From: Pseudovirgaria hyperparasitica
Taxonomy: Eukaryota
Strand: one strand, 5' to 3'
Length of the DNA: 64,000 nucleotides
Assembly (NCBI GenBank): GCA_010093815.1
Contig: ML996574.1
Shown here: positions 19,565 through 45,100 of the stretch, in pieces
Numbering within the stretch: position 1 is the first letter of the stretch
How the letters are laid out: every line of letters starts with the position of its first letter
Notes under the pieces: generated by a model
Told to the model about the DNA's origin: nothing
Database searches by the model: none
The model's input: the letters and a program-made list of their open reading frames with translations, nothing else
Program-made: the position numbers and the translations under genes

Positions 19565-19599
19565 TATTATTATCGGTTCTATTAGCGAGTTGCGTTCTA

Positions 19600-20048: not shown

Positions 20049-20143
20049 CCGTTTATACCGAACGTCCCGTTTATACCGAACGTCCCGTTTATACCGAACG
20101 TCCCGTTTATACCGAACGTCCCGTTTATACCGAACGTCCCGTT
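20049..20143. repeat. Left subterminal tandem repeat, 18-bp unit CCGTTTATACCGAACGTC, at least 5 copies running into a gap
   Basis: Five perfect units plus a partial unit directly visible. Confidence 0.95.
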
Positions 20144-20398: not shown

Positions 20399-20899
20399 CT
20401 AAAGTAATATCTTTATCTAAAGTATCTCTATAACTCTATATATCTTATTATTCTAAATTATATCTTTAGTATATTTAATTATAGTCTTTAAATTTAATAC
20501 TAGAAAGATAGTATATAATAGAGAGTAGAGGTTAAAAATTAATTAGACTAGGAACTTAAATTAAATGGTACTATTCTAAGCTCTCTCCGACTATATAGCT
20601 ATAATGAAATGTAGTAGACCTTCCTTTCTTCTACCTTTAGGCGGTGTCCTTTATCTATTAAAAGGTGTCCTTATCTAGAACTACCTTTGATGACCTTTTC
20701 TCCCACTAGACACTTCCCTCTATATTTCTAGTTACTGTTTTTATTCTCTCTTATATTATCTGTTCGGCCTCGTGGTAGTCTATATAGTTCCCTAGCTATA
20801 TACTAATATCCGACTTCTCTTAAAAGTGTGCACTCTTTATATATAGGTTAAAGACCCGACTTGAACGTCCGCCACCATCTAACTTTATTTTGATTTAAG

Positions 20900-22400
20900 T
20901 ATCGGTCGGGGTAGATAGACTACTAGTTAAGGTAGCTATAACTAGGGATAATAAGTTAGTAATAGACTTATTTATACTACACGTATATATACTATCATTT
21001 ACCGTTCCCGCGGTTACTTAGAGCGGGTCTATACTTAATACCCGAGATGGTATAATCTTATCCGTAGCTACTACTAGTAGTATAGAACTCTTACCTATAT
21101 CTAATGGCGCATGAGATGATTCGAGGTACTTATCCAACTGGTTTAGAGTATCCGACTTATCCTTTTCGTAGTAGTTAGTACCTATATAGCCTCTATAACT
21201 TTAGTATATACTTATATTACCCGATAGCTTAGACTCCTCGCTCTTATCTAAGTTATCTATATCTACTTTAGAGAAGTTATCTAGGTTATCTTTATATAGG
21301 TTTATATATATAGTGTCCGGGTCGATTGGTATTAGTACTATAAATACTAATGCTATTAGTAATTTTTAAATATAGTCGATGTGGTAGGGCGCCTAGTTCG
21401 ACTATGTTAGGCTTAGCGCTCGCTATTCCTCTATATAATTTAGCACGCGATTAGATAAAGGTGTGTATATATACCTAGTATTAGTAGAGAGCGTACGAAT
21501 CTATAGCGACCGAAGGACGAGTTCGGCGCCCGCCCGCTACTATATTCGTTAAGGGCATGCCTTATTATAATATATATAATGGTAATCGTGGATGGTGGGA
21601 TCGGTCGGAATATACTACTATAGTACTCCTTTAATCTAAGAAATCTTAGGGACTATAGTAGAACTAACTTTAGAGCCTTAATTACTACTAGCCCTATAAA
21701 CATTTTCCGAGTTACGCTAGTATTATACTAATAATTAGTAACACGTCTAACACGACGTAAGTAATATACCTTTACTCCTATATACGCGTTATTACGTATT
21801 AGGTTACTTATACTAGCTTTTCTCTTCTCGGCTATCTCCTAGTCCTAGTATTCGGATACTATCTATCTAACTCTAGAGAGGAGTTAGTAACGGAAGTCTA
21901 TTATATCTTCCTTTACTAGCGTAATAATATAGACGGGAGATGTGTTTTATAAATTATAATTAAGATAGTAGCTACTAAGATTAATATCTCCGGCGGCTGT
22001 CTAGGCCGATTATACTAGTATCCTAAAACTATCTAGGCTACTATCTAGCCATATATTAAGGCGATTAAATACTAGTAGTAACCGGCCTAAAAACGTTATA
22101 GCGATCGAAATCTCTATTATCGTAAGGTACCGGTCTCGTTCGTAAGGCTAGAGACTATCTCTATAGAACCGCCTCTTTTTACGGATAGTTAGTTCCCTCT
22201 CTACTACTATTTCTCTACCTTCTTCTATCGAGCTAGATAGCTAATATAGTAGAGGAGAGGACGTAAGGCCGTTATATCCCCGGTTACTATTACGGTAGGA
22301 TATTACCGTGACGTCTAAGCTATATAGGGCGTTACTACCATATTCGCTGCCGGTATACCTAGACTACTAGGTTATTAGTAGATAAACGAACGCGTCGAGA
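20900..22400 (-). pseudogene. RIP-degraded cargo gene of unknown function, divergent from the transposase
   Basis: Long minus-strand frame whose stops are RIP-type (e.g. YIPTDPTIHDYH...KACP...RAGAELVLRSL), acidic stretches, and an intron-like GT..CTAAT..AG segment at ~21717-21770; boundaries approximate. Confidence 0.4.
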
Positions 22401-22981
22401 TAAGCTAGGTGTATATATATACGTTTTTTATGTCGATGGCTATCGTGTAAGTCCCCATTATTAATACTAATACGTGTCTACGTTATATCGTATCTTCGTT
22501 TACCTATCCCGTTTAGTTTACTATAGTTACTAGATTGTCTTCTATTAGTGTTACTGCCACGGTAGCTAGATAGTCCCTTAACCGTCTTCCGTGTTAGAGG
22601 TCCTATAGAGAAGATATATAAGAGATTAGTAGATATTTTCATTAGTAATGGGTCGGTGACCTACTAGGCGATAACATTAGATAGCGGGATAATAACTAGC
22701 TAGTAGACACGATAAAGGTTTAGGCGTAGACTAATATAGTGTTTTTATAGACGCGTGATGCTTATACGTTATTATTAATAATTTTAAGTGAGCGTGTATA
22801 GGAATCAAGGGGCTAAGAGCCGGGTAGAAGTCGGGGGTTAGTGGGTATATATCGGGCTTTCGACGGGCTTACACCTAACTTCTTCCGGTATACGCCTAGA
22901 ATATCCGCCGTATGCCGTATTATTACTATCTACTAATAATTATACTATGGTATTTTTCCTTTATAGTAACTACACCTCGAG

Positions 22982-25900
22982 ATGCCACGGGCCGTAGTCT
23001 CCTACTAATACTATGGTAGAAAGATTAGTAGTATATACTATATGATCCGTAGGCACCATAACTCGGAACCGTGTAGACGAGTACGGCTTGCCGCATTGCC
23101 ATTATTATTATAACTATTAGGCCCGTGGCTACTACCATCGACCGGGTCACGGCGCGGCTTTAGTACTTATAGTTATATTAGTCGATGGAACTCTTTAGTT
23201 CGCTCTGTTAGTGTTTAGCCGTCGAGCGTTAATTAGGAGTCCGAGCCTATGGAATTAGGTACTTCTACTACTAATATTACCCTATATAAAGATACTACTA
23301 TTTTCCCTAATCCTATTTCGGACCTAGAATCTATGGACGGCGTTACTAGTGGCCATGGTACCGATTTAGTATATTAGTCTAATATATATAGTAGAAATAC
23401 TATATCCATGGTAACGAGGGCGTCTAGTACTATATATTTAACGAAAACGTTCGAAGAGGAGAGCGGTATATATATTATAGTAGACTAGAGTAGACGTGAT
23501 AATCCGTCCGACGTGAGTATATATAGTCTAGGTTTATAGTAGTAACTAATTTAGTAGGCCCGATTCGGTTAATTCGATAGTAAGTTTATAGAGCGCCTTA
23601 TAATATAGACGAATTGGTTTAGTATTTCGAATATAGTATACGATAAATTAACTACTATCCTTAAATAGACTTCCGCTATACCCCCCGACCTTTTTATACT
23701 AAAATCTAATATCATATATAAGTAGTTATTATACTACCCTAAAGGGATACCGCACGAAAGTTGGTAGCGTAGCTACGATATATTCGGCACTACTATAGTC
23801 GAATACTAGTATAGGGATCCGCTTACGTTAGTGGAATTTCTCCTTAGATACTAACTGTTCGCTAGTAAGCTCGTGTTTAAGCCGGTATAATAATTTACTA
23901 GTTTAGGCGACCGGATATATAGTAAAGCCTATATAGTAGATGGTTAGTAGGATATACACGCTACTATTCCGGATGGTGCTGTCGTCGTCCCTATTATTTT
24001 ATCTTCGGATAAGACGAACCTTACTAACTATAGTAGTAATAGAGTAGCATGGCTAGTCTACCTATCTATTTATAATCTACTACTAAACGTCCGCTTATCT
24101 AGGAGTCTACTATTATTTCTACTACTTACTCTATTACTAGTAGTTAAGCTAGAAACGGTAGCGAATCGCTTTATGTTCCATTAGGTTATAAGTAAAGTTC
24201 TAGCCCGTATGTCCGCCCATGATAGAGTCGTTAACTATGCTAATTATTATATAGCGTTATAGGCTATATAGAGTACTAGAGTATTAGTATTATATGCCGA
24301 TGGCGGCTCGCGTAAGTACTATCCGCGTTTAGCTTTATATATTATAGATTTTCCGGAGTAGGTGCTTGTCACGGGTGTATCCCATTAGTATACATGTCTA
24401 ATATATATAGTCCCTAGTAATAGACGATAGTATCTACGAGAAGCTATTACTAGTATATAGGAGTTCCATATATACTCGTCGTTATAGGAATAGGTTTACT
24501 ATATACGTCGCGAGTTAATAACTAATAGCTATAGTAGCGAGTATACTAGTAGTAAGATAGATAATAGGATAAGTATACCCGGTATCTTATCGTTTTCGTC
24601 GACGTCTTTCACGCTAGTAGTATAGGGCCATTATATTCGCTAATCGGTTAAGAGTCGGTATTCTAGTAGGTGGATAGAGCCATTGGATAATTTCGCCTAG
24701 TCACTTACTAGAGTTAATATATACCGCGCGGTCGCTCCGGACATTCTACATTAACTATATAAGGGCATATTAGAACACACGTTCAATTAGATAGTCTCGT
24801 ATATTATTAATTAAGAGCGTACGGGATATAAGTTAAAGGGTGTGTTTACTAGTATACCCCCTATAGAATGAGTAAAGAAGGCGATCGATAAGCGATTCGC
24901 GTCTATTAGGGCATTTAGTCGTTATAACCCACTCACGTGTATAACTTTAGTAATATAATAGACGGAGGCGATGTTTAAGCGTATGCTAGTAGTGTTTATA
25001 GTCGCGTTTAAACCGCTCCTATGTTATGATCGATACTTTCTAAGCGTAGTACGGGCGGTTATTAATATATATATGTTAGCGGCGTACTATACGCATGATA
25101 CGTAGATACTAGTATACTTAGAAGAGGCTATATTACGCTTAGACGACCTGAAATACTAGTTTATACTATATTATGGAGATAAATCGGAGGATAATCATTT
25201 TAACTTTCCGAAGTTCTATATATTGTCGCACCTAGTCGATGCCATTAAACACTATGGTTCGTTATATCTAATATTGGTAGAGCTACTAGAGTAATCTTAT
25301 GTCGTAGTAAAGGAATTATATTAAGGTTTAAATAAGAGGGAGACGTTTCTATAGTAGATACTAGTAGTAGATATACGCACGACGAATACTAAAATCTCTA
25401 GTGGTATAGAGGTGGCGGCTGGTACTAGTATATTAGTAGCCCCTAGCCTAGAGTAGCTCGATAATACACGTAAGCTAGTCGGCTAGCGGCGTATTCTAAA
25501 GGAGCCACGCCGGAGTAAATATATACTCTACGTCTTATAGAGCCATAGACTATCTATATTCTACTAGACTACTATCGGCGACCTCCACGACGTGTATAGT
25601 AGTAGTTTTATATTACTTAATACGGTTGCACCCTTTATACGTAACTATCGTAATCGGCTTATCGGGGATAATATATTAAAAGGTATGAATGTCGAACGTA
25701 TTGAAAAGGACCCTTCGTGGGCACGGGTCCTTCCTATCTATATATACGAGACCATATACGTGCCGATATAACTAGATAGAGATATATCTATAGAGGCCTT
25801 CGACCCGATTCGGGTAAGGTATACCCGTAACTAGTAAAAGAGTAGTAAGGCTAGGGAGGATTATATAATAGTATAGGAGTTTAACGAGGGTAGTAACCAC

Positions 25901-26308
25901 CTTAATAGGAAGCGGGTTAGTAAAGTCTATATATTTCTAGAGGTATACGATATAGAGAGTATTAACGTAACTAGTAGTATGGCGGCGCGATTCCTAGGTG
26001 CGTTAGTTAAACTACTTAATAACTCGGGTAGAGGCAATGTCGATACTATTAGTAGCCTTATACTATTACGTATAGCGGGTTAAAGGTCTAGTAATAAGAC
26101 TCGTACGATAGATAGGTTCCGTGTCTATGAGCTAGAGCATGTCCTACGCCCTATATAGATTATATCGCGTTAGTTAGTTATGGATAGTTCATTCTAGTTA
26201 AACACGTATAGTAATTAGGGGATCTATAATAAGGTATATAACCTAGACTTCTAGGCTATAAATAGACGAAACGTAACCGTAGCGTTAAAACACGGGCGCG
26301 TATCGTAA
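22982..26308 (+). pseudogene. RIP-degraded Plavaka (CACTA-related) transposase with N-terminal C2H2-like zinc finger
   Basis: ATG 22982 MPRAVVS(C)(Q)Y(C)GRK...RRHH; core VVVPIILSSDKTNLTN...AWLVYLSI(C)NL at ~23981-24080, (I)DFPE(Q), VAPDILH(Q)LYKGI, FNFPKF(H)ILSH, C-terminal F(W)LNTYSN(W)..YNKVYN(P)DF; intron GTATGT...GCTAAT...AG 24207-24254. Confidence 0.85.
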
Positions 26309-27867
26309 GTCTATCGCTATCTACCGCCGCCTACTATAGTATGCCGGCATATACCGGTATATAGCGGAAGTTATAGTTTATATATAGTAGCACTCGATAG
26401 TCGTATTCTATACTAGAATATCTCTAAGGAATGATCATGGTTTATTACGATCGGTTCTATAAAAGGCTTATATTTAATAACTATCTATAATTTTAGCTAA
26501 GGAGCATCTAGGGATGCACCTCCTTATTACCTAATGATTACTAGCTAGTATAAAAACTCTACGCCTCTAAAAGGGGTATATAGAACTTAAAGGATCCTCG
26601 TTCACGGGTAGAACTAGACGTGGATAGTATTAACCTAATATAGATAGATTATATATATTAATACCCTAAAATCCGAACTATGTCTCTAGGCCCACTAGAC
26701 CTAGCTCGTACCCGATCCTAATGTTTTCGTTATTCGCGTTTATGCCTCGTTGGATGCCGGGCATATAACGAGTCTATGGTTAAGTAAGTGTTAGGTACGT
26801 AACGAGTCTATTAATGAATGAGTACCGGGTATATAACGAGTCTATATAAATGAGTATAAATGAGTATATACCGGGTATATAACGCTCTTACTAGGGAAAC
26901 GTCTTCCTTAAGTATCTCCCCCTTCTAATGTTTCTCCTCCTCTTCCTTTATTCTTTCTCTAGCCTTATAAGTATAGTTAGACTTATATCGCTATATTATT
27001 AATGTATACGTTCTTATATAGACCGTTAGAAACTACGGTAACTAGATGTACGTTCTTATAATAGATAAATATACCGTACTAATATATCGCATTGTTCGTG
27101 TTTAATGTAAGGGTTCGCTACTATAATCATTCGTCGTTACGCTCGTCTATCTCTTCTTAATAATAGTACTAATCGATAACGACCTATTATAGAGATAATA
27201 GTTAGTATTACGTACTTCTCTTAAATATTCGCATATTAATATTACATGAGTATATACTTCGCGGAGGTCCTCTATCCTTCCCTTAAGCTACCTAGACCAT
27301 CCCCTAATCGCTAAAAACTCTTATATCTAACTATTTCTACTATTTATTCCTCGGTTCTACTCGTTAGACTTCGAACGATAGTAAACTACGATAGGTTAGC
27401 GGTTATCTATATTTCGCGTACGCCGAGTTAGCATGCCTGAATATAATAGATAATAGTATATTTATAATAGTATATACTAGATCTTATAGTATTCCTCTTT
27501 AGCGGTAGATCCACGTGGTTATAAAGACGGCCTACTATCCTATCGTGCCTATATACTACGCTACTCTTTTATCGTATATAGACGGTATTACCGGAGTAGG
27601 GCTATCGCCTAGTAAACTTAACGTTATGTATAGAGTATTATATATTTAACGTCGTTATTTCACGTGCCCTATATTAGTGCGGGATCGGATACCGGCCGTA
27701 TGTTTCCCCGCCTCTATTAAATTAACGAGTTATTACCGAAAACCATGTAGACTACTCGCGTTAATATAGCCGTAACGTACGTGTTATACCTACGCCTATT
27801 ATATAGTGTATATATCTTATCTCTCTATTACCCTAGTAATATATACTATTCCCTATTCTATCTATCT

Positions 27868-28830
27868 ATGGCTACGTCCGGCCAGCCGCGAACAAATAGC
27901 CGAGTAGAAGCGAGTCTCGACCTACTTTATATATTTAGAGCGTCCGATAGGTAGAAACTTCGGGTATATATAGAAGAGTTAATTTAGGAGGAATTTGCTA
28001 GCCTATTACTAAACCTACGTAGTAAGGAAGTAAAGGACCACTATATAAAACAAGAGCGTTGCCTATAGACGGTCGCGGATGAATGTATATTTATTAATAG
28101 TAGTTATACTATTTCACGGGTAGATGCTATGTATTAACTTAATACTATATTCTTAGTATTTACGCGTAACTGGCGGCGGTTAGCTAAACACCATTATATA
28201 CGTTAAAACGATGCCCCGGGCTAGACGAGCCGTTATAATATTATATATACCCCACGAACCCGCCTAATATATCTAGCTAACCTAGTTATTCGACCGTCGG
28301 ACTACTAGTATCTATATCTTCTAAGGTAGCCGTGCCGCCGTGTTATATATATATACCTATAGTCCTTATCCGCGATCGTACTCGGGTCACCCTAGTACTA
28401 ATAACGGCTATATAGAATGGCACGACGCCGTTAAATGTTAAGGGTATAAAAATACGCGATATAGTAGGTCTTAGTATAAATAAACTATTAGAATTTATTA
28501 GCTCGTCTATAGATATACTAGGGGATATAGGCGGTTATAGATATAGTCGCGTCTACCTAGAGTACCCGATTCTACCGAGCGAGTCGAGTGATATAATCCT
28601 TTATAAGGATAGTTTAGACTAGGTGTTATAGTAGACTATTAAATAGGCACTAGGCTTAGGACTAGATCGGGTGGTTTTCCGCGTGGGTAATATAAATAGT
28701 ATATTTAGAAGCCTACTATAACGTATTAACTATAATCTAACTATATAGGAACGTCGCGCTATAAGTATAGTAGCGGGATTTATCCGTCTAGCACGCGTAG
28801 GTAAGCTTAAGATATATATACGCCGATAGA
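27868..28830 (+). pseudogene. RIP-degraded cargo ORF of unknown function (~320 codons)
   Basis: ATG at 27868 (MATSGQPRTNSRVEASLDLL...); frame continues with TAA/TAG stops explicable as RIP of Gln/Trp codons. Confidence 0.5.
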
Positions 28831-29049
28831 TATCGGCATATATCGACATGTTACGACTACTAAGCGGTGTATACCGATATATACCGGTATATCCGGTATA
28901 TACCGGTATAATACCATCGCTCTTCCGTGGATATAACACCATTTATATATCTTAGGTTTTCGGTTATTAGTTACGTATAGTGTTATATATACAGCGGATA
29001 CCTTACTAGATTTAGGTCTTTCGTTAATAGTATATAGGTACGCCCTAGT

Positions 29050-29875
29050 CTACTCGATATAGGCGTAGTCGACGCTTTATCTACTTAAATAATAGACGTT
29101 AATAACGACGCGACTAGTATATTTATCTATTATATTATTAGCTAGCTAACGTTATATTAGGAGAGTCGAGCGCCGCCGTTCCGTCTACTCTACCCGTCGA
29201 TGTTAATATGCTAGCGATTATAACCTAATCGCCTTACGAATCGATATATAATGCCGGTGCACTCGAGAGTTCGAGCGAACGTGTAAAAGTCCGATATTAT
29301 ATACTATTTAGGGCCGGGGAGGAAGCGCCTACCGGCGTAGTAGTTATTAAGGCGATAGTAGAAGTCTATATATAACTAGATATACTAAGTCCGCCTCCTT
29401 CTTATGTAGTCCTATCGCTAGATAATATTACCGGTTTTAATATTACGGGAGAGAAGTTTATAGACACGAACCTATGAATATCGGTATAATATCGGCTCGA
29501 TAGTACGTATTATAGTATAAGGTAAGTTATATTTAAGCGGTAGTTAGACACGTGCGCTAGTATGCTAACGGATATATAGTATCTCTACCATGAATAGAAT
29601 AGGCAAGGCATGGCTAGTAATATCTTACTACCTAGAAGAGATAGTTACTATAGAATTTAGGAGATAGGCTCGGCGTCTATAGCGTTAGTATATCGGACGG
29701 TTGAACTTTTATATAATACTATTTACTTATATCTATATTTACCTAAGTCCCGATTCGATAGCCTTCTATAACCTACTATATACTCGGTTAGCGAGCTACT
29801 AGACTCATATAATAGTAGTATACTACCCCACTTTATATACTACTTAAGCTACTATTACTTTAGCCTACGTTAATC
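29050..29875 (+). pseudogene. Probable further RIP-degraded cargo ORF, function unknown
   Basis: Coding-like frame (...SPYESIYNAGALESSSERVKVR..FRAGEEAPTGVVVIK...) with RIP-type stops; boundaries uncertain. Confidence 0.35.
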
Positions 29876-30145
29876 TTAGCTTCCTTTAGTCGTCTCTATG
29901 TTATAAAAGAAAACTTCTATAAACCTTTCCTCTACTTATCTTGGTTTTTAAACCTAAATCTTACCTTCTATACTTTATTCCGTGTTAATTACGACTATAT
30001 ATGAACGCTACGTCGAACTCGACTCTATTAACCCTTAAGGTCCATTCTATATAACAGTTAACGAGGTTATATTTACAGTTTATAATATGGATTAAGAACT
30101 CGTTATATTCGGCGATGTTTAGGACTAGTCTACGCTCGACGTAAT

Positions 30146-30515
30146 TAAGCCTTACGTTTAAGCCGAGTCTTACGTTTAAGTTAAGCCTTACGTTTAAGTC
30201 GAGCCTTATACTTAAGTTAAGCCTTATATTTAAGCCGAGCCTCACGTTTAAGTCGAGCCTTACGTTTAAGCCGAGCCTTACGTTTAAGTCGAGCCTTACG
30301 CTTAAGCCGATTCTTACGTTTAAGCTAAGCCTTACGCTTAAGCCAATCCTTACGTTTAAGCCGAGCCTTACGTTTAAGCCGATCCTTATATTTAAGTCGA
30401 GCCTTACGTTCAAGCCGATCCTTACGTTTAAGCTAATCCTTATATTTAAGCCGAGCCTCACGTTTAAGCCGAGCCTTACGTTTAAGCCGAGCCTTATACT
30501 TAAGTCGAAGCTTAC
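30146..30515 (+). repeat. 18-bp coding tandem repeat (~20 units), de-RIPed reading (V/A)Q(A/V)EPH
   Basis: Unit GTT[C/T]AAGCCGAGCCT[C/T]AC, in frame with the helicase ORF. Confidence 0.9.
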
Positions 30516-33500
30516 GATACGACTACCGTCTTAACCGATAATAAACTACTCGTCTTTAGTATACTTACCGGTAACTACCGTTCTAACGACGAGTATGAAC
30601 TTAAGAAGGTCTAAAGTAGTAAGGCTCCCGTTTCTACTTACGCCATCTATTAGATCTCTCTTATATAGGGCGATCTATAGTTAACCTTTGGGAATGTCTA
30701 TGGTATTAGTAGAGAAACAGATGGACTTAAGTAGGAATAAGCGAAAACTCAAGCCGAGCTTAAGCTAGTAGTATTTAAGGCTTGTGGTAAAGGTCACGGC
30801 TTCGAAGAGTCGATTAGTTATATATATAGATTCCTTAAATTCCCTAAGTACCGCTCTTAGATTGAGTTACGTGCTCGCTTCCGATGGATTAATAAAGGGA
30901 AATTAGTATCCTTAATAAGCTTACTCCGCTTTAATCGTACTAATATCCTTCTATTATCCGACTACCCTACGGTGTAGATCTTTAAGGTTAAGTAAGTAGG
31001 TGACTTTATCGAGTATTTTCCTAAACTTCCTAATCTCATTATAAGCGAAGTGGATAAAGCCAATATACTATATATTAACACCGGCCTCTATAAAGACCCT
31101 CGCGACTTTTAGGTTATCGAACTTATAGCTAGCGAGCTTCTTAGTATAGGTTTTACTATCCCGTTATATATTAGACCCGATATAATACACGAACGAGTGA
31201 AGCAATTCTTTGAAGATCTAGGTACTTATACTATAGTTTATATCTTGCTACCGCTACGTAACCCTATGGATCTTACCGGCTTTAATAATAAGCTTAAACT
31301 AGAGAGCGATCCGATTAATTCATGGCATGTAGAAGTTACTACTCCCTATATATAATACGGTATAATAAGTAGGCCGGACACTTGGCTCTAGATCTCTATT
31401 CCCTACCGCGAGTCATTCGATAAGAAATTCGACTACCTAATATATATTACTATAAGTACCTTATAAGACGAATAGGCGGATCTCCTATTATTCTAATTCC
31501 AAGACGTTACCGTCGGGTATATCTAGCTCTTAGGTGTTACTCGGGCGCTCTTAGCTATCGTCTATTCTATTAATATAAAAGGATTTCATCGCATAGAACC
31601 AGGTAGTCGTAGGTACCTTAAAGTGGATTTAAAGGATTATAATAATGACGCGTACCACTTTAAAGTCCTTTGATTTCGCCTAGGCGTCCTCCTATTCGAA
31701 TGCCTCGCTCTAAAAGTCTTTAATAAGGTTAGGCGTCCTCCTAAAGCACCTAAGGTACTAATTATATTAATGGATGCGGTTACTAATATAACTCGAGCTC
31801 GTCCTAAACATTTTATTCGGACTAGTAATACTAGTTTAAGTACGATCGGGTCGTCCCTTATCACGCTTATAGGGTTCACGGACGTTCCGGCTTTAGTTAG
31901 CGTATAAACCTACGATAAGCTTACTAAGTAATACATTAATACGTGCTAGAAACTAACCTACTATACCGTGTAAGCTCCTAGAGACGGCGGCGTAGACGAC
32001 CACGCCGCTTAGGATGCGTTTAATGTGATAGTCCTTAATGTTATCGTAGACTCGGTGTCTATATCTCTAATGCATGGGTCCCCTAACCCTAATAACGAGA
32101 TTCTAGATTATAGTATAGAGCCTTAGGATACCCTCGTTACTCTTTCTAAATTATCTATATCCCTAGATAATAATAAGGACACGAATATAGAATATAGTTA
32201 CGATGTTATTAGCGACGAAGGTTCCATTACTAGCCCCGTCGCCGATATATATACACTCCTAATATTATCCAAAGTCTACTCTAGTATCCTATCCCCTTTA
32301 CCACCCTCTATATAGAACCTAATACTCGGTAATAACTACCTAAATCTTTAACCCGTCGACTATAACCGCTACGTTAAAGATTATAAAAGATTCTATAATC
32401 TCTAGAATATTATATATTCGGAGCTATCTCCCTAATAATAGTATACCTATATATAGGCGACGGACGTACTTAGGGCTTAGTTCCTACTTTACGGCTATGG
32501 AGGAGCTAGGAAGAGCTATTTATGGCTTCGTCTACTACTAGCTACACTTCTAATTAACGAAATGAACGGTGCTCCTATTATCGCTTATACTACTAAGATA
32601 GTTATCCCATCTAGCGATGTGATAGCGCACCTCCCTATACTAGGTTCCACCTAAATATATAGGATATACATATATGTTATTATCGGCCTAACCAACGAAA
32701 CCTACGACGACGCTATAAGAAAAGCATATAAATATATAAGTAATATATTTACTTACTATAAGTCTCTAAAGACACCGGTCGTTCTTCGAAGATGCCCCGA
32801 AGCCGTTAATCGAGAGGTTTTCTTTACTATAGCTAGACTATCTTATCGCGGCAACCCTCTTATCGGGCTAACCTAGGATAATATAATAGGCGGTACCATC
32901 CTCGCGTAAGCCTAGGCCGACCATAGTAAACGACTATCGGAATATAGCACGGATCCCCGTGCTCGTCTATGGGAACTATATACCGGTTACGTTACGCTCG
33001 AGGTCGTTAGACTTATTAAATCTTAATACTAATACGAATGGATCCCTAAGAATTTCAAGAAAGAAACGGCTCGGCTATTACGCGCTATCTATAAACGTTA
33101 TACTCGTAATAAGGACATGCCTAAGGAGGAGTATAATAGGATGAACGAGCTATACCTCGCTACCTAGGACCTAGTTACCATCTACGCCTAGATTTATATA
33201 GGGACCCCATATGTTATGAACATCGCCAAGGTAGCCCGTAATATATATCCGATTTTGGTCGTAATAGAAGAGGCCATGCGTATCCTTAAAAGTAATACAC
33301 TCGGGATTATTATTAATTATACTACTATAGAATAGTAACCGACATTTATTTACGTCGGCGACCCACGCTAGCTTAACACCTACTAGCGTGATAGTACTAA
33401 TATATAGACCGCGAACTAGAGGATCTCCTTTATAAAGCGCTAGATATAATATAGTTTCCCGACTACTCGCCTTACCGAGTTAGAACGCTTAGTTCCTAGG

Positions 33501-34505
33501 ATAATAAACGTTATATCGCTAATTACTTACTCGGGCGAGCTAACGACCTCGCCCTACATGACGAATAATATTAATATACCACTCGCAGAGACCGTTCGAT
33601 AAATATTTAGAATCCGCGGCTATTAACACGTCGTATATACCAACGTCGACGGGGATCACGCGCACACGGTAAATAACTTAATATATAATATAGACTTATT
33701 ATGTTTCACTTAGTAGATTATTACCGAGCTCTTCTATTATAGCGTCGCACTCGATCGCGTACTCTATATTTCTATATACGCCGCCTAACGTAATCTATTT
33801 AAAGGGATAGTTAGGAACTCGCTTCTAACTATACTTACCGCAGCAGATAAAGCTCGATTTAATGCCCTACCTAAGCCGGTATAGAAGCTTGTCCAATGGC
33901 GTTCATGGGACGGTTCTTAGAGTTATAATAACAATATAGTCCTTATCAACCCGGTCTAAACCAATCACTTCGGCTTCCTCTCGGAAGTAAACCGTAACAT
34001 CATTACTATTACGCGCGCTAAATAGATAATAGTTATTATTACTAACTTCGTATCTCTTAAGAGGTAGAAAGTCCTAGACGGCGTACTCGGCGAGATATAG
34101 AATAAGTGCTCTAAGATTCATGCGATATACACGTGCACGACCCCCGACCTAGATGGCCTCCCTCTACTCTCTAATATATCTAATCCCTAATATAGTCGCT
34201 CTATACTTGGTATTAGAGAGAGGGGAGAATGAAGCGATTAATAAACTACCGATAGTACTAAGCCCCGTAAGCCGCTGGTCTACCGTAAATATAACGTCGA
34301 AGGATATAAGTCTATTAAGTATCTAAGAGAGTCGACGCTTATATATAATAACTATTAGGACATCGGCCATAAAGCTAATGTTTACCCTAAACCCAAGACG
34401 CTTACGGGTACGTTTTACTATAATTATAGGACTACCGGTTATACTCGGCGTTATTGTTCTAGCCGTACTAAATTACTAGCACGCATAAATGGTAATAATC
34501 TAGTT

Positions 34506-34605
34506 AATACTACTAGAGCTAATACTACTAGAGCTAATACCACTAGAACTAATACTACTAAAACTAATGCTACTAGAGCTAATACTACTAATAAAGTAAC
34601 TACTA
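34506..34605 (+). repeat. 15-bp tandem repeat (ACTACTAGAGCTAAT-like, ~6 units) in the helicase tail
   Basis: Directly visible. Confidence 0.85.
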
Positions 34606-35139
34606 GCGGCTAGGACGATAGAGACTACGAGGATGCCGGCCGAGACGGCGGTGTTATAATATATAAAGATATGGAAGTTAATTAGTAATAGCATATGATT
34701 AGACTCACGTGTTAGGGCTACTTAGTCACGGCTTCTTAGTAAGTATACCTCTATATCTATTTTAGTTATAGTTACGATATTCTACTAGGTAGATAGTTTA
34801 GCTCTATTAAAGACCTATTAAGGGTATTTCTATTACGTCTACTCTAGTATAGACGCGCTATTAGATAATACGGCGCCACCAGGCACGTTAACCAGTACCC
34901 ACCGATTAAGAAATAAACACGATTCTATATCTACCGTGAGCCCCGGCCTAATAACGTAGGCTTCCTTTAGTTATCCCCTTTATACTTTTAAAACTACTTC
35001 TAGCCTTTATATTAGGAGATATTACTATCTAAAGAGAAAATATAAAAAAATATACGCCCTAATCAAAGCCTCTACCTTTAGACTTTAACTATAATATATA
35101 CGGGATATAGTAAACCCAAATATCGCGTACTTTAAAAGC

Positions 35140-36800
35140 ATGGAAGGATATAATACTTGAATATAACGAAATATAGGCTCACGATACTCGGAGAGTACCT
35201 AGGGATAAGTATATGAATATAAAATGGGATAAGACCAACGCGGCACCTCGTATATATATAGCCATATACCGTTCTAGACGTAGTCGCCTACGATATAATA
35301 TTACGAGATAAGAATCATGGCTATCCAATTCTATTAAGGGTATTAGACGATATAAAGTAAATAACTACACGCCCGACCACGCCACGCTAAGTTACGTACG
35401 TGTTGTAAACGCGTGTTCGAGGAATAATAAGGATATAAACGAGGTTCACCTGGCAGGTGCCTCGTTATTCCGGCTTCTACCTCTATCGTCCGATCTATAC
35501 CTCCGTCTTCCTTGCGCCTATAATATACCATGCGTATACTATATAATTAGTCCGTAAATTATAAACACTATATTAACTACGCACGTTAACTACACACGAT
35601 TAATATATTGAATCCGATTCCATAATAAAGTAACCGTCCGAATATAGTAATTACTATAGTACTACTTCGCATCTTAAGCCTAGATATATAAGTAAAGCGT
35701 GAAGCTATAGAGGCGTGTATAAGATAGCTATATATAGAAGCATATACGGCTACTCTACTCGTAGACTATAGGCGTTAAACTAAGAACGAGCTCGGCGTAA
35801 AAAGAGCACGTAAGATTATTAATAAGGTGGCGGGCGAATTCCTAGTAGTATAGGAAAGAGTAGTAGAGTGTATAGAGATAAAGGCGCTATACTATATCTA
35901 CGACCAGGTACGCACTATAGTATAGAAAACCGTATATTATAGAAAAACTATCTCCGAGTATAAGAAGAGGCGTGTAATTATAGCCCTACATCCCACGACC
36001 TTATAATCCCCGCCTATTACGACCTTATAACCTCCGCCTATCGCGACCTTATAACCCTCGCCTATCACGACCTTATAGCTCTCGTATACTACGACCTTAT
36101 AGCCTATACTCACAGCGGTCCCATAGCCCACTAACGTATATACTACGAGAAAAATCAAATTCATGATTAGGTTTAACGATAACGCATTCCTTAAAATACT
36201 AGTACCTACATCTAACTAGTAGAAAGACCATAGCGACGCTTTATATATTAATTCGGTAGTATTTATACGGCGAATTAGGGTCTAATATACAACGAAGACT
36301 AGGAGGGCACTTAACTAGAGCTATACTACTATATATTCTATCGTGCTAGTAGTCGAGTATATAATAAGTAAAACGGAACTAGAGGTAGATATTAGATGGC
36401 TCCTATAGTTAGTAATCGAATATATCCTAGAATATAGTAATAGTATAATACTCCTCGGCCTTAGATAGGATATAGATAGTATACCCGAAGTAAAACGAAA
36501 TATAAACTAGCGACTAACATATAATAGTATAGACGGCTGTATATAGGTTACGCTCGAATAAATCCGCCCCTCCGTCCCTAATGCCACACTCGCTACGATT
36601 AGTATAATAATAGTAATAGAAAGCTACCGCCTACGACGGTAGAGATACCCATAGAGATAGTATTATAGGTAGTAGATAGTATCACCTAAACGACTTAACC
36701 CTTCCTCTAGTAATACTATATATACTACTATCGGTACCTAGGAAGTCGCGAGACCGATCTATAAGCTCTAAAGACAGTGACTTCGAAAGCCTTAAAAGTA
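35140..36800 (+). pseudogene. RIP-degraded cargo ORF(s) of unknown function containing a 24-bp repeat (TTL(Q)PPPI-like) at ~35993-36105
   Basis: Long coding-like frame (NELGVKRARKIINKVAGEFL...KIKFMIRFNDNAFLKILVP) with RIP-type stops; boundaries uncertain. Confidence 0.4.
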
Positions 36801-37318
36801 CCTTAGATATAGAGGATATAGATATCGCTTTTAAAGACTAATAGAATAATAAAAAGGGTACTAGAGGTAGTAAGAGTAGTGTGCGTACTTGGCTAAGGCG
36901 ATGCGATCCGACGTAAGACGGCTTCTACCTACTATATATCGATATATACCCGATTCTACTAGCTATATAACTATGGCGCATATGTTTGGTCAAGACGTTA
37001 TAACACTAGTATAAGCCGGCGTCTACCTGGTTCACGTTAGGATACGCCCGGTCCTACTAGCTATATTATTACTACGACTATAATCGTATAAGATCCACTC
37101 TAATAATTAAACATTTACTTATATACTTTACTTCCTCCGTACTTATCGAAATTACGTTATAATTACTAAACGCGGCGACTTAACTCCCACCGCCTAAATC
37201 TAGTTTTCATATCTTATTACTATTAACGCCGTCTTACTACCTATGGCCTAAGTCGTATATAGGAATAGATAGGCATAACGAGAGTCACGACTATCCTAGT
37301 TTAACTACCGGCTATAGA

Positions 37319-40300
37319 ATGGCTAACCGTGACACGCATATACAACGTGCGGAGGCCTTAAGCGTTAGCGCCCTCCTACCTTATATCTAGTACCTCCGAG
37401 GCCCATACCTAATACCTAAAATAAGTTATAATATATATAGGGCTACTATTATTAAGATAGTAAGTAAAGAAGTAGTGATAGAGCTTAAAACTAGTAGTAT
37501 AGATACTACTATACTCTATAGGATAGTTAAGGAAACCGTTACTAGAGAATTCAATTGGCACATCGCGGCTATAAATAGTAAGTTAGTACCGACGGTTACG
37601 ACCATAGATATAATAGAGGCTAAACTAGACATAGATACTATAGGTATAGGTACGTAGACATAGTTACCGCTGGAACATAAGGAGAAAGATAATATGGAAG
37701 ATACTAAAATGGAAGACGACGTAGCTAGTATACTTAGACACATATATATACACACGGTCCTAGATACTAACATTAGAGTAGTATCGAATATAGGCGCGGT
37801 TATAACTACTAACATAGATAATCTATCTATGAATATCGTCGTGCCTAGCGAAGCTTATCCACGCGTAAACATACTAGCTATAGAGATATAGTTATAGTTG
37901 CCGCCGGAACATGCGGAGAAAGAGAACGTGGAAGATACTAAAATGGAAGACGACGCAGCTAGTATGCTTAGATACATATATATATACATGGTCCTAGATG
38001 CTAACATTAGAGTAGTATCGAAGATAGGTACGGCTATAACTACCGACATAGATAATCTACCTACGAATGTCGTCGTGCCTAGCGAAGCTTATCCACGCGT
38101 AAATATACTAGCTATAGAGATATAGTTATAGTTGCCGCCGGAACATGCGGAGAAAGAGAACGTGGAAGATACTAAAATGGAAGACGACGCAGCTAGTATA
38201 CTTAGATATATATATATATACATGGTCCTAGATGCTAACATTAGAGTAGTATCGAAGATAGATGCGGCTATAACCACCGATATAGATAACTACCTATGAA
38301 TATCGTCGTGCCTAGCGAAGCTTATCCACGCGTAAACATACTAGCTATAGAGATATAGTTATAGTTACCGTCGGAATATACGGAGAAAGAGAACGTGGAA
38401 GATACTAAAATAGAAGACGACGTAGCTAGTATACTTAGACATATATATATATACATGGTTCTAGATACTAATATTAGAGTAGTATTAAAGACAGGTGCGG
38501 CTATAATTACTAATATAGACAATTCCCCCACGAATGCCGTCGTGCCTCTAGATACCGGCGAGACTTATCTACGGCTACTAGAAATAAAGAGGACACTCTC
38601 GGATAATATAGTAAACCTAGTCGATTCTCCGAAACGCCTAAAACTAGAATATATTATACTACTAGATATCGACCGGTAGACATATGAAAACCAGGAACTA
38701 TTCGGGTTAGTAGATAATTTGTATAGTAGATATATATCGGATAGTATATTAGCGAACGGCCTTGACTTTAAAATCCTTTCTATAGACGACGACTCTAATA
38801 GAGATAAAGTAAAGCTAGATATAGAGGACTTAATTCCGGTAGATAACGATATTAGTACGAAACTATAGGAAGCGTAAGTCATACTAAGAAGTAAGTAGGA
38901 ATATATACTACCATACTAATGTATCTATAGAATATTCGCCGTTAATAACTCTAATAAAGTAGTCTAAGCTATCTCTTATTATACGGAAGAGATACGGTTA
39001 CTTACTATAAGTATGTTTAGGCTTACGCTAGACGACCTAATAAAGGAGTTCGGCTATATACCCACTCTATATCTAGCCTTTAGTATAAGTGGGTCATATA
39101 GGCCATGGGCCGGCTAGTTACTCGCGGTAGTTACTATGTTTAAGTAGCGGGCGGGTCCGTGGAAGTGCTAGATCTTAGTAGATGGTCTAGGGCTAGGGAA
39201 GATAATCGTGCTTATAATGTTCATCCACCTCGCGTTTTATTAGGACTTTCTACGCGATAATATAGAACTTAATCTAGGAAATTATCTATAACCGACTTAA
39301 GACTCGGGCATGGATAGGAAGTGTCCGATATAATCTCTACATCCGATTAAATGTCCGTGTAGCTAGACCGATAATTTCGTCCATGTGCCCCGCCTTTAAG
39401 GACCATTTATACTATACTACCTAAGGTCCCTTCTAATAGCGCATTGGCCGCAGCGCTTTAAATAGATGTATAACGATACGGATAGCATGTTTACCGATTA
39501 AATTGATAAACGGAACCTAATAAAGATAATAGTACGGCTGGTATACTCGAAAACCCTTACCGACGCCCCTAGTATCTAATAATTCTCGCATATAGACCGA
39601 TAATACTTAGCTAAGAGATACCTATACCCCGAATGGGAACATAGCGTCGATATTAGTAATACTACTAAATTTAAGACCGACGAGGAGTATATTATTAGAG
39701 CATGGTTGATTCCCGTTAATAGGACCGCTACTACCGAATTTCCGTCGCGATACACGAAGAACCATATAATCTATAGTACCATCTAGAGTATAGAACCCTA
39801 ATATCTTAAATCTTTTAAGGGACGCGTGGTTATAAGAGTAAAGAGGGCGAAATAATTTAGTACTAAAAATACTTAAACTCGCGAAGTAGCATTCCTCGGT
39901 ATATTAATAGTAGACGAGTTCTATTCCGCAAAGAACCCCGATATAAAATAGTATAAATATACGATATATAATGCCCTTATATTTAGTATATAGGTTAGTG
40001 TAACGCCCCTCTCGAATAGTCTAGTAGATATTCTAGCGGCTATTGAGGCAGGTGCTCTAGATAAGTTACCCGACTACGTCGACGATAATACTACTAAAAG
40101 GGTATTCGAGAGCCTATAGAATAAAACTATAAGGAAGATTATTATAACGTGGTTAAATAAACTCCTTAGTTTAATAAAAGGCAAGCTAGCGGATACGATG
40201 GCCGCGATAGTCCGTAGGGCATTAGAAACCATAGAAGGTAAGCGCATACTACGTATGGTAGCCGATTGGTATTTACTATTTATTCTATAACGGGGACTAC

Positions 40301-41400
40301 TAACTAAATGGTTTAACGGAGAGGCATGTCTATCTATAATATTAAAGCTAGTAGTAGAGTTTATATCCGTCCCGGCTATAGAACTAGAGAAGATAATTAT
40401 ACGGTTATACGAGAATAGAGGTAGATAGTTTAATAATCTATAGCCTAACGGAACGCCGTAGGACTCGTAGATATAATCTATCGCCTAGAGTAAATCGAAA
40501 GGGGGTACCGGGTCCAGGCTTAACGCATACTACCATTAGGCTAGGCTAGCTACTACATATATACTACTTATATACCTTACTAATAAAAAGATAGAAGACG
40601 AGTAAATTAATATTACGCTCACGCGTCGGAGGGATAGTAATAATAGTATACCGAGTAAGATAATCACCAATCCCGTACGCGAAGCGCTCCTATAGCTAGA
40701 TAAGGCCATACAAAAGGAGATAGTATCACTAGCTAATAAACACGCTTCGAAGGTAAACTAGATCCGTAACTTTATTAATAATAACGTTTATAATGAAAGT
40801 ACTAGACGCGCGCGACGAACATCCGCCGACCGCCTAGAGAAAATCGTACTTATATATACCGTACCGGCAAGCTTAATGTTTCTATACTTAGTAAGTGTTT
40901 ATACTACCTACTAGTAACGTAATTCACTAATATATATAGGTACTACGTCCATATGCATAAGCGAAAATGTTAGTATATTTACCAGCCGGCCTAAGTACGT
41001 CCGAATTAAATAAGGTATATAGATTATTTAGGTCGACCAAGTCGGATTCTCCGTGTATTCTACTAGTATTAGCTTTATAGGTCTGCGAAGGATAAGACCT
41101 AATAGTCGCCGGTTTTATAGTATTAGTGGACTAATGCTTACGTAAGGAGACGTGGCCGTAGGCAAGTATAAGATATTATCACCATGGATAATATCGGCCT
41201 ATAGTATATACGTATGCTTTGATTTTAGACTATTTAGAGGTCGAGGCTAGACTCGCCGCGTTAGGTAAGGTAATCGAAAGCACGAGGATATAAGCCTTAG
41301 ACCTAGGAAAAGAAGATATAGCTATAGTAGAGATAGCCACACCTAACATGCTAGTAATAGGCGTACGCTTTAATCCTATAGAGATATAGTAGTATAGAAG
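37319..41400 (+). pseudogene. RIP-degraded SNF2-like (SF2) ATPase/helicase with N-terminal 78-aa tandem repeats
   Basis: RPWAG(Q)L (Q motif) ~39100; ILVDGLGLGK (motif I) 39172-39201; GPFILLLPK..IAHW (Ia) ~39400; ILIVDEF(H)SAKN (II) ~39901; VSVTPLSNS(P)VD (III) ~39994; SKVN.IRNFI and EKIVLIY (helicase C) ~40747-40857; intron GTAAGT...CTAAT...AG ~40891-40939. Start and end approximate. Confidence 0.75.
37660..38547 (+). repeat. 234-bp (78-codon) tandem repeat, ~3.8 units
   Basis: Unit starts at 37660, 37894, 38128 and 38361 (third unit 233 bp); encodes PPEHAEKENVEDTKMEDD...VVVPSEAYPRVN. Confidence 0.95.
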
Positions 41401-41534
41401 TAAGTAAGGTAGTCGGTTAATTAGCTTCTAAGAGACTAGATAGTATGGTAGTATAAATACGAACCGCTGTTTACTCATGATTACATGTCTATATATATCT
41501 ATACGTAAAGAGAAATAAGATATTTATTCTATAC

Positions 41535-42060
41535 CGTTATATAGTAGGACGTTACTATATATGCCGGTATATAACGGAATATTCCGACATGCGCCGGTAT
41601 ATTATAGAATATTTCTAGATACTCGAAGTATAGTCGTAGTATAAAGTAGCATTACTATTATATACCGGCATATGGTAGGACGTTACTATATATACCGGTA
41701 TATAACGGGATCATGTTCTAACATACTATACGCCGCCGGTATATCATAGAATATTCCTAGATACTCGAAGTATAGTCGTAATATAAAGTAGTATTACTAT
41801 ACTATACCGGTATTTAGTAGGACGTTACTATATATACCGGCATATAACGGGATTAAACGTTTTCTTAACGTTCGATAGAACGATTCTAAAAGAACCGGGA
41901 TGGCTCTAGGAGAACTAGAATAACTCCGGGAGGACTAGGACGACTCTAGGAGGATTAGGATAACTCTAGAAGTACCGGGACGACTCTAGGAGGATTGGGA
42001 CAACTCTAGAAGTACCGGGACCCATTTGGGATAACTTTAGAAGTACCGGGAGACCTAGAA
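41535..42060. repeat. Right subterminal repeats of the CACTA/Plavaka element: ~130-140-bp units (41535-41852) then ~20-bp units (41890-42060)
   Basis: GTAGGACGTTACTATATA..CCGG recurs at ~41544, 41675 and 41817; GGGACGACTCTAG[G/A]AG-type 20-mers repeat up to the TIR. Confidence 0.85.
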
Positions 42061-42199
42061 GCATTGGGAGCGCCGTATCTTTCCTAATAAAGTATCTTTT
42101 TCTCCTATACCTCCTTCTTCTTTTCTTCCTTATTAGTTCCTAACGGGGCCCGTTCTATAGTAACGAAATAGGCCTTCGATAGGTAGGCTTCGATTACAC

Positions 42200-45100
42200 G
42201 ACCGGTTTTAATATATGGTAGGTGGAATTCGCGTAAACGCCATTATGTCTTCTTTTAAGTATTACTTACTTTAATAATAAGTTTTATTATTTTATAGTGA
42301 TAATAGGGTTCATTATTCTCTTTCGATAATAGAGTTCATCGTTCTTTTTCGATAATGGAGTTCATCGTCATAAGGCTACTTTTATAAGTATCCCTTCCCT
42401 CCTTAAAAAAACTTCTATCCCCTAGAAGAAGATATCGATTCTAGAGAAACGTAAATATTCTTCTCTATTAAAGTCTTGCGGAGTAGGAATCACTACTTCT
42501 ACCCGGGTTCGTGTAGCGTCGTCGAGGTGTTCCGTAAGTTATTTATAATAGTTTTCCTTATCGCTACTCTCCTTATGTTCCTCGGTAATTCTTCTAATTA
42601 GTAGTCGCAAGGGCTCGTCGTAACTCTCGTTACTTACATTTCTTATAAAATATTTCTTTAACCTATGGCTAGGAAACGTCCCTCTAAGCATGGCTCTATT
42701 AAGCTCCGCGAGCTTATAAGTATAATTAAACACGGACTAGATTCTATATGGCCCCCTCTAATACTACCTTAGCTTCCGCTCTATATCCTTCTATCGCTAC
42801 GAGTTATATAGAAGGATAATCGTATCAACTAGTAACGACTCTTAATGAAGGTAATAGTCGTTATTCTATGCCTCTCTTAATTCCTTACGCGTTCGTATCG
42901 TGTGGGTATAGGCCTCCTTAAGATTCTCGGATCTTCTCTTAAGTTATCTAGCTTAAAGAGCGAGTAAGTCGGATGTTAATTACACCTTATCCTAAGGGAG
43001 CATTTAGAGTGACTCGAATTCGACTTTAATAGATATAATTAGTTTATGGCCGAGCACGAGGTATACGGTACTATACCCTATACTAGCACGTGTTATTATT
43101 CTATCTACCTAGATAACCGCATGGAGGTGGCCGGGCTAGTTCTTGAATCCGCCATTAGTTATCTTCGCGAGAGTATTAGCGAGTAGTATAAAACTTCTCT
43201 CGATAATCCCATTTACTTAGGGATTATATATAGACGTAACCTTCTAATAAATTCTATAGAGTCGGAGGAGCTCCTCTATGGCACCTATATTTTCTCTACT
43301 ACCGTTATAGATGATTTTAGGAATAATTCTATATCTATAGATTACGTTCTTAAAGAGGAACTTTACGACGACTATAGACGTAGCCGCTATACATACCTCC
43401 GCCTTAGTCTATCCGCTTAGCTATTCTTATATAGATACCACTTTACTATACCCTATAGAAGGTGGTAGCGTCGTTACGTCTAAGTATATTCTTTACTAAA
43501 GAATAGGCGTTATAACGTAGTAGAGCCCTTTATTAAGACCTCTAAGGAGTTTACTTCGTCGTTAATATTTATTATAGGTTTTTACGTACTATCGCACGTC
43601 TCTATGTATATCTACCTACTAATACTTATCCTTAATCCTTCTAAGGGTCCCTTCGCTACCTCTATAATCTATCTCGTTATAAGTGGCGGTAATTATACAC
43701 GCCCTAGTATTCGGATCCTTAATTACTCGTGTATGTTAGCGATATCTATCTCCTCTCTACTAGAGTATTCGGTCACGTATAAGGAACTTTAGGTAGTCGG
43801 TTATAAAGGCCTTATACGCTCGGTCGGTTAGATTAGTTAGCCTCTTAAGTATAGTAAGGTACTTTATAATCCTCTACTATTTATCGCTATATTCATCTAT
43901 TAAGGGAGACTTAATAGCGGTATAGTTAAGTATCCCTATCGTGTAATCTCTCCCGCTAACGGGCTTAATTAACGACGTCTCTAGCACGTCTATATATAGA
44001 GCCATATCTACGAACTCGTCTAGATTAAAGGTAGAGATATCTAGTGGTTCTTCTCCTTTATACATCCGTAAGATACCGTTAGCGACTACGTTACGCTTTC
44101 TAGGTACGTATCTAACTATAAAGTTCTATAGCTAAATCCACGCGAGCCATCTAGTAATAAGCGCCCCTAGTAAGTTAGTTATAGTATGGTTAATTTAAGC
44201 GACTAGAGTATTCGCGTCTATTTCTATAATAAAGTACGTACTATAGAGGTATTACTAGAACTTCTATAACGCGTAGAGGAGGGCTCGGTACTCTAGCTTC
44301 ACGGTGTCGTAGTTTCTCTTAGCTTTTAACTATATTCCTCTATTATACCGCGATGGCTAACATTTATAATTCTCGTTCTCCTATATTAACGTAGCTCTCT
44401 ACCTAATATTACTAGAGTCTACTACTAGGATTATATCTCCCGTACCTATCCCGTACTATAACGTTATTAGTACGGGAGTAGTAGTTAGAGCTATCTTTAG
44501 CGCGTCTATCGAGGTCTACTCCTTAGCTATCTACTACTAGGCCGATTTATTCTTTAATAGTATAAATAGTAGTAATGTAATAATAGTGTACCCGGGGATC
44601 CATATCCGGAAATATATATAAACGCCAAGGAAGGCTCGTATATTTATCGTGTTTTTATAGGGTTTCTAGTCCCTAATAGTAGTAACCTTTTTATTACTCG
44701 GTCGCCTCCCTTTAATATCGTAGACGTATCCTATAACGTTAGCGGCTTTAATATACTACTAAGTCTTCTTACTACTTAGAGTGTATCCGGCACGCTCTAT
44801 ATCTACGAGAACCTTATCCACGTTAATTAAATATTCTAGGATATATCTATAAATTCTAGGTAGGGCCTCCTTAGAGTTATATTTCGTTATAGGTCCTTTA
44901 ATACCTAAGTTATCTAGGAATAGTAGAGCCCTCTCCGGGATATGTTCTTATATAATAGTTAATATAATCCTAATAAACTAAGCTACTAAATTAGTAGCCC
45001 CTTAAGGTAATATTATCCTATATAGTAATCCTAGGGGCGTTATAAACCCCGTTAAGTCTTAGTAATACTCTACTAATAGAATCTAATCATATTCTAAGAA

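Follow-up and report, generated by a model that had tools for sequence, protein, structure and literature searches.

Why a DNA transposon of the fungus Pseudovirgaria hyperparasitica should encode a Upf1-like helicase, and what this protein could have done for its carrier, is the question raised by a 64,000-nt stretch of contig ML996574.1 (assembly GCA_010093815.1), called the window below. An earlier note, made from the letters of the window only, had described at 30087-34700 a transposon-borne Upf1-like helicase with three CCHC zinc knuckles and a variant Walker B motif, and had proposed a factor acting on element RNA. The gene does lie inside a 22.2-kb Plavaka-type element with defined ends (Table 1). 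The analysis presented here places the protein in an unnamed ascomycete helicase family with a PH-like (pleckstrin homology-like) N-terminus and traces its cassette to a probable source in a Gypsy retrotransposon, three points that had escaped the earlier note. It also suggests, with a probability of about 0.4, that the helicase protected element RNA from the silencing or decay machinery, passive carriage by Plavaka being a close rival.

The genome is 35.4 Mb in size, and a block mutated by repeat-induced point mutation (RIP) spans 2-54 kb of the window. The DNA of the helicase gene has 34 matches in this genome (19 near-full, 13 partial and 2 distant), and copies were compared on the 19 near-full Plavaka copies. 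The copies are separated from the window copy by 301-751 transitions versus 0-13 transversions, and CpA/TpG sites are mutated most (0.76 versus 0.24-0.40). The damage, with this transition excess and this CpA/TpG bias, is RIP. In the window copy, the 18-nt repeats, the helicase motifs, the three knuckles and the 15-nt tail are all read in a single frame from the ATG at 30087, as had been claimed; this frame contains 86 stop codons (85 TAA/TAG and one TGA) and zero frameshifts. Twenty-five of these stops are sense codons in at least one of the 19 copies and 61 are never sense. Codon 34683 is TGG in one of the 19 copies and is followed by TAA; judged from the sequence, the frame probably ends near 34688, and not at 34700 as given before.

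The roughly 20 VQAEPH-like repeats described at the start of the protein were recovered as the 18-nt array of Table 1: its number of repeats differs among Plavaka copies by whole units, its hexapeptide consensus (A/V)Q(A/V)(E/D)P(H/Y) fits the codon states across copies, and it is absent from the Gypsy-borne homolog. The short-repeat tail was likewise recovered, as the 15-nt array. Motifs I, II, III, V and VI of superfamily 1B (SF1B) occur in order, in agreement with the Upf1-like assignment. The profile check proposed with that assignment succeeded for AAA_12, which is matched over the cut-off by residues 1125-1320 of the RIP-damaged protein, and failed for AAA_11 and zf-CCHC, which have no Pfam match on this protein; the helicase can nevertheless be aligned, over 520 columns, with intact relatives in which AAA_11 is present. 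ZNFX1 is the sole PDB sequence match at E<=1, and Viral_helicase1 of Pfam has no match at E<=1 in the window helicase. At Walker A, the glycine codon is AGG in 14, AGA in 4 and AGT in 1 of the 19 copies, and therefore encodes glycine in none, while the Gypsy-borne homolog keeps this glycine (GLGGAGKS). The knuckles were inferred from spacing and from residue states across copies: their ligands are read as C or H at 2 of 12 positions in the window copy and at 6 of 12 in at least one of the 19 copies, the rest being TAY. The pattern [CY]x2[CY]x3G[HY]x4[CY] has three matches in the 103,996 codons of the RIP block, all in tandem here, which bears out the three knuckles first described; a looser pattern has 10. 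Both Gypsy copies have the same three knuckles. The C-terminus comprises only these CCHC knuckles, without an NFX1 finger array.

The first codon of the Walker B pair is GAA in 17 copies, GAG in 2 and GAY in none, and the second is GAG in 18 and AAG in 1. The pair EE is also present in both Gypsy-borne homologs. Because a change of D to E requires a transversion, EE is not explicable by RIP, as the earlier note had argued. However, its view of EEA as a notable variant has to be abandoned. Indeed, Walker B of ZNFX1 reads IVEEAAE, E-E-A is invariant in 12 of 12 ZNFX1-type proteins, Aquarius also has EEA, and so do 5 of the 12 host AAA_12 loci and 48 of 118 profile-search matches, in a search whose query favours EEA proteins. 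Human ZNFX1 is described in PMC13710534 as an active ATPase that unwinds RNA. Since ZNFX1 hydrolyses ATP and unwinds RNA with EEA, this motif is ordinary, gives no sign of unusual catalysis and is on its own of little importance; the ZNFX1-type proteins, the host loci and the activity of ZNFX1 rule out a novel or inactivating change.

A profile built from 11 copies of the transposable element (TE) was searched against 1.84 billion representative sequences and gave 118 matches, the best with E 1.8e-12 and none close. No close intact homolog was found among these representatives, in a search where a RIP-damaged query is less sensitive and transposon genes are often unannotated. The best matches are AAA_11/AAA_12 proteins of 1000-1400 aa without further common domains; named members come from Aspergillus, Phyllosticta and Diplodia, their distribution is patchy, most are singletons, and they are 20-42% identical. 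The named intact ones include KAL4911555, KAL4788904, KAK7538279/86 and SLS55_005048 of Diplodia, and Aspergillus multicolor has a naturally intact protein of this family. Trees drew on 59 rows (46 of 73 rows plus 13 named proteins), 38 of which form the 38-row tree. In the latter, the TE proteins and 17 family rows make up one clade (support 100/99), whose sister group is Aquarius together with the ZNFX1-type proteins (96/92), host Upf1, Sen1, Dna2-like and other branches being separate; the same clade is found in two other trees (100 and 99.8). Of the comparison with host helicases suggested in the earlier note, the separation from Upf1 and Sen1 was obtained, and the part on SAD-3 was not, this protein not being in the tree by name. 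The ZNFX1-type clade is presumably the home of SAD-3 and Hrr1, neither of which is in the trees by name. Background on both is given in PMC5384783.

The helicase core matches the unnamed family with E 3e-41 (members chosen from the matches of this same query) versus 9e-14 for ZNFX1-type proteins. Because the family-profile score of the core does not discriminate, host Upf1 scoring higher than the TE copy, family membership rests on the trees, on the insert and on the N-terminus. The N-terminal half matches the family profile (24 rows) at 96% in hhalign (E 3.3e-9), versus 0.1-0.4% in negative controls with ZNFX1-type, Upf1 and Aquarius profiles (0.1% for ZNFX1-type), and because this half lay outside the search query, the match supports the family independently. 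Taken alone, the PH-like domain reaches 0.7% in hhalign with a 7-row alignment, the stalk 19 bits versus at most 2.6 for shuffles, and 1B is undetected; the hhalign match extends to the start of 1B. None of 238 proteins matched a profile made from the N-terminal half of the TE protein. The model of an intact relative (pLDDT, the predicted local distance difference test, 80.6) has Upf1 as its top fold matches. For the N-terminal domain of this model, the top 50 of 48,161 chains all belong to the PH superfamily by title, and the best match has Z 10.0 and a root-mean-square deviation of 2.8 over 93 residues; Foldseek gave no match at E<=0.001 with this domain, and a search of a structure atlas gave scores of 0.76, a lead only. 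The domain is thus predicted to be PH-like from the model of the intact relative only, and a shared fold shows no function.

In brief, the helicase is a member of an unnamed ascomycete Upf1-like family composed of a PH-like domain, a stalk, 1B, RecA1 with an insert, and RecA2, and its three CCHC knuckles are an addition to this architecture. Walker B is readable by pattern in 23 of the 25 listed members, one of which has EEA and most DEA. The knuckled members have three knuckles each, one set N-terminal and the other C-terminal. The intact member with N-terminal knuckles, P0031, has a small neighbour at 5058-5597 with weak PigL_N/SesA similarity (E 0.001-0.01, below the cut-off). No transposase was seen in the genomic context of intact members, which here amounts to one 6.3-kb contig. 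Two members (P0021 and P0054), whose accession numbers differ by seven, share a Phyllosticta contig, which suggests a local duplication. No publication was found on this family or on Upf1-like genes in fungal Gypsy or Plavaka elements, in a search of a library with few subscription papers. Defined by its intact members, this Upf1-like family is uncharacterised and open to direct testing.

How the gene reached the transposon is suggested by the two distant matches in the same genome, which are 42-45% identical to the window helicase at the protein level. They belong to a two-copy Gypsy element on C15 and C4, scattered by nested insertions. The C4 copy (C4:1051881-1167209) is spread across 115 kb, and one of the insertions nested in it is a helicase-bearing Plavaka copy. 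This Gypsy element has (i) 242-bp long terminal repeats (LTRs), (ii) 5-bp target-site duplications, ACCAG and CAATG, and (iii) the domain order reverse transcriptase-RNase H-integrase (RT_RNaseH, E 3e-7; RVT_1, 0.0045; H2C2, 0.069; Tf2 SH3, 2e-4 and 3e-6), followed by a possible chromodomain that was read by eye and has no Pfam match. Its helicase is a separate gene between the pol stop and the 3' LTR. No other Plavaka gene was present in the fetched flanks of the homolog, which rules out a Plavaka context for it. Between the two lineages, transversions at codon positions 1/2/3 amount to 0.15/0.125/0.31 (1292 codons), a pattern by which they are judged to have diverged as working proteins under protein-level constraint.

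In Plavaka, the helicase gene ends like its Gypsy counterpart and is followed by an LTR-like piece that covers nearly the whole Gypsy LTR and is present in all 19 copies. This piece scores 108-118 for the four LTRs versus 33-36 +/- 6 for shuffles (maximum 59.5), and the match is unique within Plavaka, where the next-best place scores 56. Upstream, the spacer homologous to the one between pol and helicase in Gypsy scores 101 and 104 versus 49-50 +/- 8 for shuffles (maximum 84.5 of 200). No gag-pol or second LTR is left in Plavaka. On this sequence evidence, the spacer-gene-LTR cassette probably came from a related Gypsy and entered Plavaka before its burst; transfer from Gypsy to Plavaka is the simpler direction because a retroelement capturing the gene would keep its own LTR. 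The LTR piece may have stayed as the 3' end signal of the helicase gene. All 28 matches of the piece in the genome adjoin helicase matches or, for the 2 that were fetched, lie in Plavaka fragments; these two, the only candidates for free solo LTRs of the donor, were rejected on that account.

As to function, Upf1-like helicases move along single-stranded nucleic acid and remodel ribonucleoproteins, and CCHC knuckles bind RNA. In the preferred reading, the protein would be an ATP-driven translocase on single-stranded RNA, its knuckles would grip RNA and its PH-like domain would dock on a partner, and silencing or decay complexes, or duplexes, would be cleared from element transcripts. Such a service would be useful to both element classes, and it could explain their shared carriage because it does not depend on how an element transposes. 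As RIP acts on DNA, the helicase would have been killed nonetheless, and all of the copies examined, Plavaka- and Gypsy-borne alike, are indeed dead through RIP. A wider proposal, in which the PH-domain Upf1-like clade, sister to ZNFX1 and Aquarius, would be a portable transposon counter-defence against RNA silencing that passed from Gypsy to a DNA transposon and was kept by both, is unlikely. Hardly any transposon-encoded counter to RNA silencing is known from fungi; if the reading is correct, this gene would be a candidate from a cellular helicase family.

Several points weigh against RNA protection. SF1B also includes DNA enzymes, and an RNA substrate is here an inference. Compared with its helicase family, the TE protein has L in place of the conserved Q of ExxR, and the N of motif VI is shifted; because of these departures, helicase activity is not certain. 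Only 2 of the 25 intact members have knuckles, and none of the 25 is shown to be on a transposon. The TE rows of the 38-row tree are long-branched and of biased composition; a forced clade of TE and EEA proteins was not rejected (approximately unbiased test, p=0.054), in a tree where SAD-3 and Hrr1 are not present by name. The donor Gypsy family was not found in this genome. Finally, transversions are flat among Plavaka copies (18/21/18); they give no evidence of selection in the Plavaka phase, and all of the constraint could date from the Gypsy phase.

This flatness speaks for a rival reading in which the helicase helped Gypsy only, in RNA packaging or in unfolding RNA for reverse transcription or translation, and in which what was left of a nested Gypsy travelled passively in Plavaka not long before the burst of the latter. 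The knuckles resemble nucleocapsid knuckles, and the gene sits after pol, where retroelements have their accessory genes; most Gypsy elements, however, need no helicase. Furthermore, the 4.6-kb frame stays open in Plavaka although gag-pol and the second LTR are gone, the polypurine tract is lost, and the family-profile score of the Plavaka copy (187 bits) is as good as those of the Gypsy copies (193 and 152 bits). On the side of such carriage, passive transfer is the term applied in PMC12730594 to the movement of TET/JBP genes among fungal transposons. This account of a Gypsy helper carried along by Plavaka is rather unlikely.

Of the 12 host AAA_12 loci, 11 belong to known branches or match them. 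The remaining one, at C10:989600-990700 (989.6-990.7 kb) on the minus strand, is a truncated relic and the sole family member in the genome without RIP. It has a DEG Walker B, an internal stop and a shortened motif V region, and is devoid of Walker A, of the N-terminus and of knuckles. Directly upstream of the relic lies an open frame that looks phosphotransferase-like by eye. At 26% identity to the TE helicase it is the nearest host sequence, and a genome search with an intact family member left the N-terminal half of that member unmatched. With a truncated relic this distant as nearest relative and the other loci in known branches, a recent duplication of a host gene, which the earlier note had named as an outcome contrary to its claim, is out. 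The relic is accounted for either by a former presence of the family in this lineage, independent of these elements, or by an older element of which it is a remnant.

The same relic, which a quick tree puts beside the TE proteins (Shimodaira-Hasegawa-like approximate likelihood ratio test, 96), could point to a fast-evolving antiviral or immunity helicase that transposons took from the host and then spread, to the benefit of the host or by accident. The sister position to Aquarius and ZNFX1, the divergence and patchiness of the mostly singleton members and the weak SesA/PigL_N-type neighbour in the single intact context would fit such a gene on loan. This origin is nevertheless quite improbable: a gene carried in many copies is a target of RIP, and this one was destroyed by it; the parts listed above are missing from the relic; and only one genomic context is behind the neighbour evidence. 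Very improbable is a helper that resolves RNA-DNA hybrids (R-loops) or aids integration or excision along with the SNF2-like cargo: Sen1, IGHMBP2 and Dna2 are among the fold neighbours of the intact relative's model and the same element has a weak SNF2-like gene, but the helicase protein has no nuclease domain, it is not in the Sen1 or Dna2-like branches, and the knuckles and the retroelement origin point to RNA.

The RNA-protection reading concerns one gene of a larger carrier, whose features are listed in Table 1. The ends of this carrier were compared with four other copies: the left end is the same in three (the fourth being in an N gap) and the right end in all four. The target duplication is TA in the C14, C26 and C20 copies, and TGATG is intact in one of five right ends, the others being RIP states. 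PlavakaB elements are defined in PMC12730594 by CATCA..TGATG termini and a target-site duplication of 2-3 bp. By its transposase domain, termini and target-site duplication, as read from the sequence, the element fits PlavakaB. The transposase has 28 matches in the genome. No credible Pfam match was found in 26501-29900 and 34901-38400. About 3.6 copies of a 234-nt (78-aa) repeat are present at 37589-38547, upstream of the SNF2-like core, without a Pfam match. Sub-terminal arrays of 18-, 20- and 142-nt repeats occur near both Plavaka ends (20049-20143 and 41461-42021), and the left array reaches an assembly gap in several copies. Plavaka is itself inserted in an older LTR retrotransposon, of which empty-site copies are found on C4 and C15. 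Four occurrences of a palindrome of about 33-42 nt were noted (16570-16611, 46049-46090, 48764-48805 and 49716-49757), three within the outer LTR retrotransposon and one just past its right LTR.

Table 1. Positions of the helicase gene, its parts and the surrounding elements in the window
Feature	Position	Strand	Remarks
RIP-ruined helicase gene	30087..34688	+	about 1530 codons, no intron needed; probable end
18-nt (6-aa) repeat array	30148..30496	+	19.4 units
N-terminal region: predicted PH-like domain, stalk, start of 1B barrel	30810..31676	+	residues 242-530
Walker A	32493..32516	+	GYGGARKS in window copy
Walker B, VVIEEA	33258..33275	+	first E in 19/19 copies
RecA2 domain (AAA_12)	33459..34046	+	Pfam E 1.7e-7
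Three tandem CX2CX4HX4C knuckles	34281..34457	+	mostly Tyr after RIP
15-nt (5-aa) repeat tail	34505..34590	+	5.7 units
Non-coding spacer homologous to Gypsy pol-to-helicase spacer	29650..29990	+	weaker than LTR match
Decayed Gypsy-LTR homolog	34676..34886	+	directly after helicase stop; without polypurine tract and LTR start
PlavakaB-type DNA transposon carrying the helicase, 22.2 kb	19914..42089	+	same ends in other copies
Left 26-bp terminal inverted repeat	19914..19939	+	preceded by 2-bp target duplication AA
Right 26-bp terminal inverted repeat	42064..42089	+	then AA; ends TGATG in C14 copy
DUF6532 domain of another element gene	21512..21931	-	Pfam E 3.8e-7, above cut-off
Plavaka transposase core	23792..24421	+	PF18759 E 9.6e-35; frame about 23300-26500
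SNF2-like ATPase gene of element, weak	39136..40044	+	Pfam E 0.15, below cut-off; motifs by eye
Older LTR retrotransposon with Plavaka inserted in it	16059..49682		378-bp LTRs, pair 93% identical

Among known systems, ZNFX1 and Aquarius share with the TE helicase the EEA Walker B, and in the 38-row tree they form the sister clade of its family, ZNFX1 being also the best PDB sequence match; the family is nevertheless a separate clade in that tree, has no NFX1 finger array or ZNFX1 domain, and its N-terminal profile is unmatched there. Upf1 (Nam7) resembles it by the AAA_12 domain and by the overall fold of the intact relative's model. However, the TE N-terminus does not match that of Upf1 with its CH domain, a PH-like domain being predicted in its place, and host Upf1 lies elsewhere in the tree.

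Neither an accessory helicase on a transposon nor the exchange of cargo between fungal transposons is new as a kind. According to PMC6338049 and PMC5563155, insect TRAS/Jockey LINEs and Copia fusions carry viral-type SF1 helicases with weak silencing suppression. They are comparable as accessory SF1 helicases on retrotransposons and as a weak precedent for silencing suppression, but the insect proteins are described as RNA-virus-derived and fused to the polyprotein, whereas the fungal gene is free-standing after the pol stop, of cellular type with knuckles, and found on both a Gypsy element and a DNA transposon. The AcademH, KolobokH and Helitron helicases treated in PMC10799480 are likewise helicases on fungal DNA transposons; unlike the present one they are given there as SF2/RecQ-type or PIF1, and AAA_11, AAA_12, PF13087 and Plavaka do not occur in the main text of that article. 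Another parallel in cargo is that of the TET/JBP genes, which according to PMC12730594 passed among fungal DNA transposons including PlavakaB. In both cases, an accessory gene moves between unrelated transposon lineages, in the same carrier group, and is read as counter-defence. The TET/JBP cargo, however, is described as acting on DNA methylation, and no retrotransposon carrier was found for it in that study, while the helicase cassette appears to have crossed from a class I element into one of class II. The LTR footprint at the end of the helicase gene would be a rarely visible record of such a route.

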